Assembly: GCA_003133025.1 (NCBI GenBank)
Contig: PKZK01000058.1
Coordinates: 1-10,411 of the forward strand
Length of the DNA: 10,411 nucleotides
Source of the DNA: Vulcanimicrobiota bacterium
GTDB taxonomy: Bacteria; Vulcanimicrobiota; Vulcanimicrobiia; Vulcanimicrobiales; Vulcanimicrobiaceae
Reading direction: 5' to 3'
Shown here: in pieces, positions 3,245 through 4,380 of the stretch
Numbering within the stretch: position 1 is the first letter of the stretch
How the letters are laid out: every line of letters begins with the position of its first letter
The notes under the pieces: generated by a model
The model's database searches: none
What the model saw: only the letters and a program-made list of their open reading frames with translations
Told to the model about the DNA's origin: nothing
Program-made: the position numbers and the translations under genes

Positions 3245-3274
3245 ATTGTAGCCCGTCAGCCTACCCCGAGTCAA
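3245..3274 (-). promoter_or_regulatory. Sigma70-type promoter for rplM-rpsI
   Basis: -35 TTGACT (3274-3269), 18-bp spacer, -10 TACAAT (3250-3245); both are 5/6 matches to consensus. Predicted TSS near 3238. Confidence 0.75.
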
Positions 3275-3974
3275 TGGCCCGGGCGCCGCCCGGGGCGCCG
3301 CGGCCGGGCGGAGCGCTCTCGGGGAGCGGCGTCTGGTCGGCGGCGCGACGCAGGGCGGACGGGTCGAGCACCACCAGACCGCGCAGGCGTCCGCCCCGCA
3401 CGACGCCCGCTCGGGCGAAGGCCGCCACGATCGCGGAGCAGTTCTCGCGCGTGGTGCCGGCCAGCCGGGCCAGGTCTTCCTGGGAGAGGGGCAGGTCGAG
3501 CCGGATGCCGCCGTCGACCGCCGTCCCGAAGGCACCGGCCAGTTCGGCAAGCGCCGCGGCCACGCGGGCCTCGACGCCGGAGCGGGTCTGCTCCTCCACC
3601 CGCTGTTCCAGCCGGGTCAGTCGCCGCGCCACCGAGGCCGCGAGCGCGACCGAGAGCGAAGGATCGACGGCCGTCGCCTGGTCCCAGGCGGCCTTGGACA
3701 GGATCAGGATGCTGCCGTCGCAGAGCGCCTCCGCGCCGGTCTCGGCGCCGCGCTCTTCGAAAGCGGCCGCCGCACCGAGCACGTCGCCGCGACCCGCGAG
3801 ACCGAGCGAGACGTCGCGCACGAACGCCGCGTTGCGATAGATCCGAAAGAAGCCCTCGACCACCACGGCCAGCGCCGGCCGGTCGAGCGGCACGAGCGCA
3901 CGTCGCGGAATGGTTTCCAGGGAACCGAGCGGCAGCAACCGGTCGATTTCCTTCTCGCTCAAGCCGGTGGTCAA
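3261..3974 (-). CDS. CRP/FNR-family transcriptional regulator
   Basis: cNMP-binding-fold-like N-domain (VVVEGFFRIYR..SLGLAGRGDVLG..AEALCDGSILIL), C-helix VEARVAAALAELA, and HTH_Crp LPLSQEDLARLAGTTRENCS. TTG at 3974 is the most upstream start, since the frame closes at TAG 4007-4005. AAGGGG lies 12 nt upstream. Confidence 0.88.
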   Translation of the reverse strand: MTTGLSEKEIDRLLPLGSLETIPRRALVPLDRPALAVVVEGFFRIYRNAAFVRDVSLGLAGRGDVLGAAAAFEERGAETGAEALCDGSILILSKAAWDQATAVDPSLSVALAASVARRLTRLEQRVEEQTRSGVEARVAAALAELAGAFGTAVDGGIRLDLPLSQEDLARLAGTTRENCSAIVAAFARAGVVRGGRLRGLVVLDPSALRRAADQTPLPESAPPGRGAPGGARAIDSG

Positions 3975-4014
3975 GGTACGGCGTTGCCCCTTACGAAATG
4001 TTTGCTACAGCGCT

Positions 4015-4380
4015 ATGTACGATGCCAGCGACCTCTTCGGACTCGGCGAGTCTGAGATCGACGAGTTGCCGTTCGGCTTGATTTCGGTCGACCCGAGCGG
4101 CACGATCCTGCAGTACAACAGCTACGAATCGCGCCTGGCCCGGCTTTCCAAGGAGCGGGTGATCGGTCGCAACTTCTTCCGCGACGTGGCGCCCTGCACC
4201 GCCGTCCAGGAGTTTCAGGGCAGGTTCGAGCGCTTCGCCGCCGAGCCGGGCGACGGTGCCGAGTCGTTCGATTTCGTCTTCCCGTTCGCGTTCGGCACGC
4301 AGCACGTCAACATAACGTTCTTGCGCACGGCCAAGAGCGACGAAATCCGAATCCTGGTCAACCGCTACGACGAACCCTGA
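4015..4380 (+). CDS. pyp: Photoactive yellow protein (PYP)-family PAS protein, 121 aa
   Basis: From ATG 4015: IDELPFGLISVDPSGTILQYNSYESRLARLSKERVIGRNFFRDVAPCT, compared with H. halophila PYP [48 protein letters not shown]. Y42, E46 and C69 equivalents are present (Y34, E38, C61; Cys codon 4195-4197). Confidence 0.88.
   Translation: MYDASDLFGLGESEIDELPFGLISVDPSGTILQYNSYESRLARLSKERVIGRNFFRDVAPCTAVQEFQGRFERFAAEPGDGAESFDFVFPFAFGTQHVNITFLRTAKSDEIRILVNRYDEP

Follow-up and report, generated by a model that had tools for sequence, protein, structure and literature searches.

The output partner of stand-alone photoactive yellow proteins (PYPs) is a long-standing gap, stated as such in passages of PMC9664959 and PMC12826048. 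The locus described here raises the question of whether, for one PYP family, that partner is a transcription factor encoded next door. The window, a 10,411-nucleotide stretch of DNA, carries pyp1 and crp1 between truA and rplM (Table 1). A preliminary description had seen a PYP gene and a CRP/FNR gene lying head-to-head with 40 bp between their start codons, and had suggested a two-gene sensory module in which the PYP controls the factor by protein contact or the factor controls pyp from the shared spacer. The arrangement was borne out, and profile searches placed both proteins in the proposed families.

Table 1. Features of the pyp1–crp1 locus, in window coordinates
Feature	Position	Strand	Basis or remark
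pyp1, stand-alone photoactive yellow protein, 121 aa	4015..4380	+	ORF, profile, structure-relative and alignment evidence
crp1, CRP/FNR-family regulator, 237 aa, TTG start	3261..3974	-	ORF, profile, model and alignment evidence
Divergent spacer, 40 bp, without conserved palindromic operator	3975..4014	.	Window letters, comparison of orthologous loci
Promoter-like element of two blocks before pyp: CAAGGTA, 14 nt, ACGAAA	3972..3998	+	Position conserved across orthologues
Sigma-70-type promoter match for rplM-rpsI: TTGACT, 18 nt, TACAAT	3245..3274	-	Overlaps final crp1 codons; context, outside module
truA, conserved flank, convergent with pyp	4365..5168	-	Profile matches and orthologous loci
rplM, conserved flank, downstream of crp1	2725..3150	-	Profile matches and orthologous loci

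Elsewhere in the window, all on the minus strand, are a DUF5069 gene conserved upstream of truA (5170–5607), a gene for a secreted 185-aa protein without a family (5688–6245), an aminotransferase and aldehyde dehydrogenase pair (8383–10411) and an ABC transporter with a DesK-like kinase (1–2184). Contigs from RNA libraries overlap part of pyp in X1 (4142–4434) and X5 (4149–4383), and crp1 is nearly without such coverage in the four runs examined; these contigs reveal neither strand nor level and may derive from DNA, and were therefore not counted as evidence of expression.

On sequence grounds, pyp1 was confirmed to encode a stand-alone PYP-family protein with the chromophore-site residues. 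PYP1 matched the TIGR02373 profile with 95.2 bits (E 2.9e-27), below the equivalog cut-off of 143.05 bits; this profile is reported to recover only 20% of the PYP homologues that BLAST finds (Xing et al. 2022, PMC9664959). The top solved relatives were Ppr-PYP (E 3.5e-21) and then H. halophila PYP, and the predicted model (pLDDT 84) has the PAS/PYP fold, with a TM score of about 0.83 to the PYP and Ppr structures. The chromophore cysteine expected of the family, Cys69, has its equivalent in C61 (codon 4195–4197), the p-coumaroyl thioester site within an NFFxDVAPC motif. It is invariant in 32/32 aligned orthologues, as are Y34 (codon 4114–4116) and E38, the equivalents of Tyr42 and Glu46. PYP1 also shares the family consensus Ser47/Leu49/Ala50/Leu52. 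In fold, in these three residues and in its single domain of about 120 aa it resembles H. halophila PYP and R. centenum Ppr-PYP, but the partners named for the family in the relevant parts of PMC9664959 and PMC12826048 are kinases, chemoreceptors, GGDEF/EAL, phytochrome and V4R domains, and no p-coumarate ligase (pCL) or tyrosine ammonia-lyase (TAL) gene lies beside pyp1.

Identity among the PYP1 orthologues is 69–83% (mean 75.6%), compared with 59.6% for truA and 71.1% for lysS, and surface conservation is high. The C-terminal ILVNRYD is invariant in the orthologues and missing from paralogous PYPs. At the Met100 position the orthologues have an invariant Phe, and in mutant work Phe at this position slows PYP recovery; a slow PYP1 photocycle may be expected from this residue. 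A passage of PMC9664959 does no more than hint at such slowing.

The divergent gene was likewise confirmed, by sequence comparison, to encode a CRP/FNR protein without the cAMP-pocket residues. CRP1 scored 61.5 bits against PF13545, above the cut-off, and matched PF00027 weakly (E 1.4e-5). Its predicted model gave TM scores of 0.83–0.86 to GlxR and Mtb CRP (0.86 to GlxR), and the protein has the superfamily layout of N-terminal beta-roll, C-helix and C-terminal Crp helix-turn-helix. The TTG start is backed by a database call (P0002) and by homologues that start at the same place (P0003–P0007). Longer CRP1 entries of 328–341 aa are, in the two checked, read-through of the pyp antisense strand, and no natural PYP-CRP fusion stood among 120 listed of 193 longer relatives, which is weak evidence against one.

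The positions of the cAMP-binding Glu and Arg are A68 and A77 in CRP1, where the Mtb GEL...PRT aligns to GAA...GAE; across the family the Glu position holds P or A and the Arg position A, with an invariant adjoining E78. No FNR-type N-terminal cysteine cluster is conserved in the 32 aligned CRP1 rows, and the sole conserved Cys (28/32) falls in the recognition helix. CRP1 would therefore need another input, or none. The recognition helix, TTRENCS, is of the type RE(S/T/N)CS with R176 and E177 invariant, but the R185-equivalent position varies (S16, A7, Q4, G2 and others, n=32), so that CRP1 may bind DNA with little specificity. The hydrophobic beta4-beta5 hairpin RNAAFVRD hardly varies; the C-terminal tail is low-complexity and lineage-specific. 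CRP1 fell far short of the NtcA cut-off (24.9 bits against 245), and it scored 20 bits against the LdrP model, for which the cut-off is 300.

The inheritance of the two genes was followed in 221 Vulcanimicrobiaceae genomes, with a threshold for PYP orthologues of E below 1e-50. CRP1 was present in 28 of these genomes and the PYP orthologue in the identical 28, adjacent and divergent in every case (27/27 without the unpublished G064). Not one of the 221 genomes held only one of the two orthologues, and 24 further genomes of the family held paralogous PYPs only and no CRP1. The divergent pairing recurred in 32/32 close-orthologue genome loci (69–83% identity) and in all 31 of the 33 metagenome CRP1 loci that had enough upstream DNA, although the genome, orthologue and metagenome sets share members and include loci almost identical to the window. 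There was no CRP1 match in the remaining 48 PYP-relative loci, no CRP1 in the 87 sampled genomes from other families of the phylum, and no PYP on the examined DNA around 47 more distant metagenome CRPs. The divergent pyp1–crp1 arrangement exceeds chance.

Gain and loss were read from the truA–rplM region and from a housekeeping tree. Among 45 chosen truA–rplM regions, none of the 43 from pair-less genomes keeps either pyp1 or crp1; truA lies within 300 bp of rplM in 14 of them and others hold unrelated cargo. On the tree (five proteins, 66 rows, excluding six short loci, two unpublished genomes and one duplicate) at least 11 state changes are required to account for the pair; one 21-row clade lacks the pair, which is confined to the rest. 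The pair's own tree is broadly congruent with the housekeeping tree, which suggests descent with joint loss. In 7 genome loci and 4 metagenome loci pyp is directly followed, on its own strand, by a gene for a sensor-less chemoreceptor (MCP), which overlaps the pyp stop in L025; the MCP gene is retained alone in 5 pair-less loci. Since this MCP is lost or kept singly, single genes can go here, yet pyp and crp1 never part. Adjacent genes can be removed in one event, so joint loss overstates their dependence, and one locus with one origin offers no independent re-assembly of the pair. The proposed two-gene sensory module nevertheless gains strong genomic support from strict co-occurrence and repeated joint loss.

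The truA–rplM interval is a cargo hotspot (L188–L232), holding MarR-like regulators, thyA-folA-like genes, cydAB-like genes, a chemoreceptor or nothing, as labelled from sequence appearance. The sensor-less membrane chemoreceptor is found at L016:6377–7768 and in L009, L018, L025, L028, L030 and L227, and alone in L201–L203, L205 and L207.

The family with the pair consists of peat and soil bacteria, most of them light-using. Records of the nearest relatives bear the titles Vulcanimicrobiota or Eremiobacterota, and four under other titles (L006, L007, L010, L028) are placed within the same tree. The host belongs to the Vulcanimicrobiaceae (Eremiobacterota). Its assembly is 80% complete and has no pufM, but it has bchG above the cut-off with bchP and bchB beside it, as well as bchL and crtP-crtB; with these genes present, the host is most likely a phototroph whose puf contig is missing. 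In the family sample pufM occurs in 29/221 genomes, comprising 25/28 carriers of the pair and 4/193 others. When 12 more carriers were tested separately, one of which duplicates a counted genome, pufM was found in 1, and 10/11 of the new carriers lacked it (9/10 without the unpublished G253). These additional carriers form one clade, together with records titled Ca. Elarobacter, and no completeness is given for them. By independent contrasts the pair and phototrophy changed in the same direction in 3.8 of 6 pairs and in the opposite direction in 0 (p 0.125, not significant). The pair therefore belongs to a lineage rich in phototrophs, yet it can persist where the photosynthesis genes are gone. 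For the one cultured relative, light is reported to double bacteriochlorophyll and to raise bchM 2.9-fold; the portion of that paper available to us mentions one PYP homologue of unknown function and has 0 matches to 'crp' (PMC9758169).

Some functional coupling of PYP1 and CRP1 is very probable, and CRP1 is a likely output partner of this PYP family. The reading that we favour, at a probability of about 45%, is a two-gene light switch in which PYP1 controls CRP1 by contact. PYP1 would be loaded with p-coumaric acid, by a dedicated ligase in a few carriers and by another route in the rest, and holo-PYP1 would then probably sense blue light. It may switch CRP1 by direct contact, most plausibly at the conserved hydrophobic beta4-beta5 hairpin, by analogy with the modulation of NtcA by PipX. 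CRP1 would bind DNA via R176/E177, presumably elsewhere than at the two operators of the photosynthesis cluster described below, and once switched would alter the expression of light-adaptation genes. The contact reading draws on strict co-retention, on the conservation of PYP1, on a CRP1 without a recognisable small-molecule pocket, and on precedents for photoreceptor–factor pairs and for CRP proteins under protein control.

Light sensors are coupled to transcription factors in other phototrophic or pigmented bacteria: AerR-CrtJ/PpsR and LitR-LdrP, where LdrP is a CRP-family protein, mediate light regulation of photosystem and carotenoid genes, but via B12-based sensors and not a PYP. The conserved genomic pairing expected of photoreceptor–transcription factor switches of the LOV-LitR and AerR-CrtJ type was found in 28/28 carriers. 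In PmSB-LOV/PmlR2 of Pseudomonas mendocina the gene for a stand-alone PAS photoreceptor of blue light likewise lies next to that for the transcription factor which the photoreceptor controls, although the system pairs a flavin LOV protein with a LitR/CarH repressor, and light-dependent binding is reported there in the text consulted (PMC9758184) where it would be expected for PYP1-CRP1. In the PipX-NtcA system of cyanobacteria a CRP/FNR factor is modulated by a small separate protein, and a passage of PMC11850224 calls such protein co-activation unique to NtcA within the family; PipX is however no photoreceptor, NtcA also needs 2-oxoglutarate, and the RE helix of CRP1 differs from the RVTVTR of NtcA. 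In Rhodobacter capsulatus the stand-alone Rc-PYP has a partner protein, PBP, whose association depends on light and which the available part of the preprint (bioRxiv 10.1101/2021.06.01.446672) gives only as a possible downstream protein, whereas the candidate for PYP1 is a transcription factor.

The preliminary description knew of no described PYP-CRP/FNR pairing, and we found none in the open-access literature searched, subscription papers and preprint supplements lying outside the search. The main text and supplements of Dohmen et al. 2025 (PMC12826048), as available, list Eremiobacterota PYPs and have 0 matches to CRP/FNR; among the 789 homologues of Xing et al. 2022 (PMC9664959), five neighbourhood entries read 'Crp', scattered over proteobacteria and with no Eremiobacterota in the entries seen. 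The PYP1-CRP1 pairing is real, conserved and apparently undescribed, and the pair names a specific soluble candidate partner with unusually strict co-inheritance. If PYP1 binds CRP1, CRP1 would join NtcA, with its PipX, as only the second CRP/FNR factor modulated by a protein, going by what PMC11850224 states of the family; the two proteins would also form a natural light-switchable transcription part, and would give a first handle on light raising, not lowering, bacteriochlorophyll in Eremiobacterota.

The main alternative, which we consider unlikely, is an indirect module, in which both genes would belong to one pathway and be served by a common divergent promoter region: CRP1 would set pyp (and pyp-mcp) expression or share its regulon, and the PYP would signal elsewhere, for example to the sensor-less chemoreceptor in phototaxis. 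The MCP gene after pyp in the loci given above fits this, PYPs beside sensor-less chemoreceptors are described in part of PMC9664959, and the cultured relative is reported to show phototaxis in blue, green and red light (PMC9758169, in the portion available). However, most pair loci are without an MCP, the host genome (80% complete) has no MCP match, and the five pair-less loci retain the MCP with no pyp. If CRP1 merely drove pyp, moreover, pyp surviving without CRP1 might be expected, and this was seen in 0/221 genomes.

The spacer bears on the same alternative. No palindrome or operator is conserved in or near it across the orthologous loci, which counts against the indirect module and leaves control of pyp by the factor from the shared spacer unsupported. 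The conserved element there instead resembles a two-block promoter. It lies 9–17 nt before the pyp start, with an information content of 13.3 compared with 9.2–9.9 for shuffled sequences; the motif also scores high before crp3 (median 6.5, background −0.8) and stands 9–16 nt before the start codons of many host genes, and therefore reads as a promoter class and not as an operator. We infer that it is an alternative-sigma promoter. The host encodes a SigH-like sigma factor (C32:8390–9037); going by the consensus for such factors, we guess that it is linked to this motif. One operator candidate in the window, GAAA-N6-CTAC at 3995–4008, was rejected as chance: its score of 11.7 falls below the training minimum of 16.3, and it was not seen in the 32 other loci.

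The light reading is at its weakest on chromophore supply. A PYP-type p-coumarate ligase-like gene occurs in 5/221 genomes, all of them carriers, at 294–311 bits against a cut-off of 335. No p-coumarate ligase was found in five near-complete carriers (0/5, in a search without a positive control) or in the 80% complete host assembly. Each of six genomes tested has one aromatic ammonia-lyase; that of the host scores as histidine ammonia-lyase (HAL), and its SH motif, which we take to be a mark of HAL, is also present in the ammonia-lyases of three other genomes. The ligase-like gene lies mostly beside the photosynthesis cluster, at its mrp-crtP end (L168:14020–15249, L154–L158).

This supply gives rise to a second alternative, a chemical switch: apo-PYP would be acylated by hydroxycinnamoyl-CoA derived from plant or moss phenolics, and loading, not light, would toggle CRP1. 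The carriers have no TAL and mostly no dedicated ligase, so the chromophore would come from outside; the RNA datasets that contain this stretch are catalogued as metagenomes of peat, permafrost, moss and plants (X1, X2, X3, X5 examined); and non-phototrophic carriers exist. On the other hand, the photocycle residues Tyr42 and Glu46 are invariant along with Cys69, and the carriers are mostly phototrophs that often have several other intact PYPs (up to six per carrier), one inside the photosynthesis cluster. Most published pyp operons, too, do without these enzymes, TAL being present in 5% and pCL in 32% (PMC12826048, section 8). We therefore regard a purely chemical switch as improbable.

It is still more improbable that the genes are unrelated neighbours that entered the variable truA–rplM interval once, were useful mainly to phototrophs separately, and were removed by single deletions. 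All copies do stand at one chromosomal site in one subclade, with no independent re-assembly elsewhere, the interval hosts other genes in other lineages, and each gene could track phototrophy separately. Such neighbours are, however, hard to reconcile with at least 11 changes and zero single-gene survivors, with the persistence of the intact pair in non-phototrophs, or with an adjacent MCP gene gained or lost independently of the pair.

Targets of CRP1 were sought in the photosynthesis cluster. Two sites of class II type were seen there, each about 22 nt ahead of a TANNNT element: GTGA-N6-TCAC precedes bchF in 24/24 loci, and GTAG-N6-CTAC precedes pufB in 11/11 loci and then in every further pufB locus examined. 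Both sites persist in pair-less phototrophs. Two further CRP/FNR proteins accompany them. CRP2, with an RETVSR helix, is encoded in the photosynthesis cluster after pufC in 29/29 pufM genomes; CRP3, a 360-aa protein with an NtcA-type RVTVTR helix, occurs in 27/29 pufM genomes, in the host and in G251, and in none of the non-phototrophs among the 69 genomes tested. The NtcA box is given as GTA-N8-TAC in the part of PMC11850224 consulted. From helix type and co-occurrence we infer that GTGA-N6-TCAC fits CRP2 and GTAG-N6-CTAC fits CRP3.

Several roles for CRP1 were rejected. As puf activator at GTAG-N6-CTAC it fails because the site is present in pair-less G171, G126, G105 and G101 and matches CRP3. 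As main owner of GTGA-N6-TCAC (bchF, bchL, bchN, bchH) it fails because CRP2 is found in all 29 pufM genomes and because genomes lacking the pair keep the site. The crtP-promoter site GAAG-N6-CTAC is intact in pair-less G183 and degenerate in carriers G246, G255 and G256, and carotenoid desaturase, considered as a co-inherited target, occurs in 36/59 selected genomes, many of them pair-less, and is missing from four carriers. No operator tracks the pair among the spacer, puf, bchF, crt and crp3 promoters examined, and neither photosynthesis-cluster site is conserved at the pyp/crp1 spacer. The target of CRP1 is apparently not the main photosynthesis operators.

PpsR scored above its cut-off in 0/5 genomes tested. 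A wider reading, in which PYP1-CRP1 would be the first direct PYP-to-transcription-factor switch, with a ligase-free loading route, and the light input of a three-CRP network (CRP1, CRP2, CRP3) replacing PpsR/AerR in phototrophic Eremiobacterota, is tentative and somewhat unlikely. Least probable of all is that CRP1 has no regulon of its own and is mainly a light-gated modulator of CRP2 or CRP3, through heterodimers or competition at GTGA-type sites: R176/E177 match the CRP2 helix at 2/3 base-reading positions, no private CRP1 operator was found and the three paralogues co-occur in most phototrophs, but one carrier clade keeps the pair without CRP3 or pufM, and phototrophs G126, G171 and G105 keep CRP2 and CRP3 without the pair.

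CRP2 (gene at L172:9526–10206, plus strand, and in L236–L265) is likely to be a regulator of bacteriochlorophyll synthesis. A GGTGA-N6-TCACC class II site is conserved before bchF, bchH, bchL and bchN, in the host at C78:1026, C45:15981 and C92:13059. The CRP3 gene (L270:13800–14882, plus strand; L393–L422; host C92:11628–12686) encodes an N-terminal domain of about 170 aa with no Pfam match, and GTAG-N6-CTAC sites precede pufB and crt; CRP3 merits its own study as a candidate photosynthesis activator of this phylum. The cluster itself varies: pufBALMC is present in two or three copies in G004, G029, G082 and G103 (L170/L172, L179–L181, L274/L286, L284), and a second layout, with crp3 just upstream of puf, occurs in G171, G126, G105, G091 and G251 (L268–L272, L184, L287). 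Three of these five second-layout genomes are without the pair and without any PYP, and the other sampled member of the genus of G105 is without pufM, which hints at cluster transfer.

PYP1 is accompanied by other PYPs at conserved loci. A second intact PYP is encoded within the photosynthesis superoperon, between bchZ/dprA-like and hemL (L169:10501–10902, with equivalents in L173, L176, L178, L182, L187, L276, L277, L280 and L283). A third conserved PYP locus lies near an ftsEX-like ABC ATPase gene (L034, L035, L038, L039, L043–L046, L049–L051, L065), and in the three such loci that were read the PYP gene follows acyl-CoA dehydrogenase-like and peroxiredoxin-like genes, as labelled from the appearance of their sequences.
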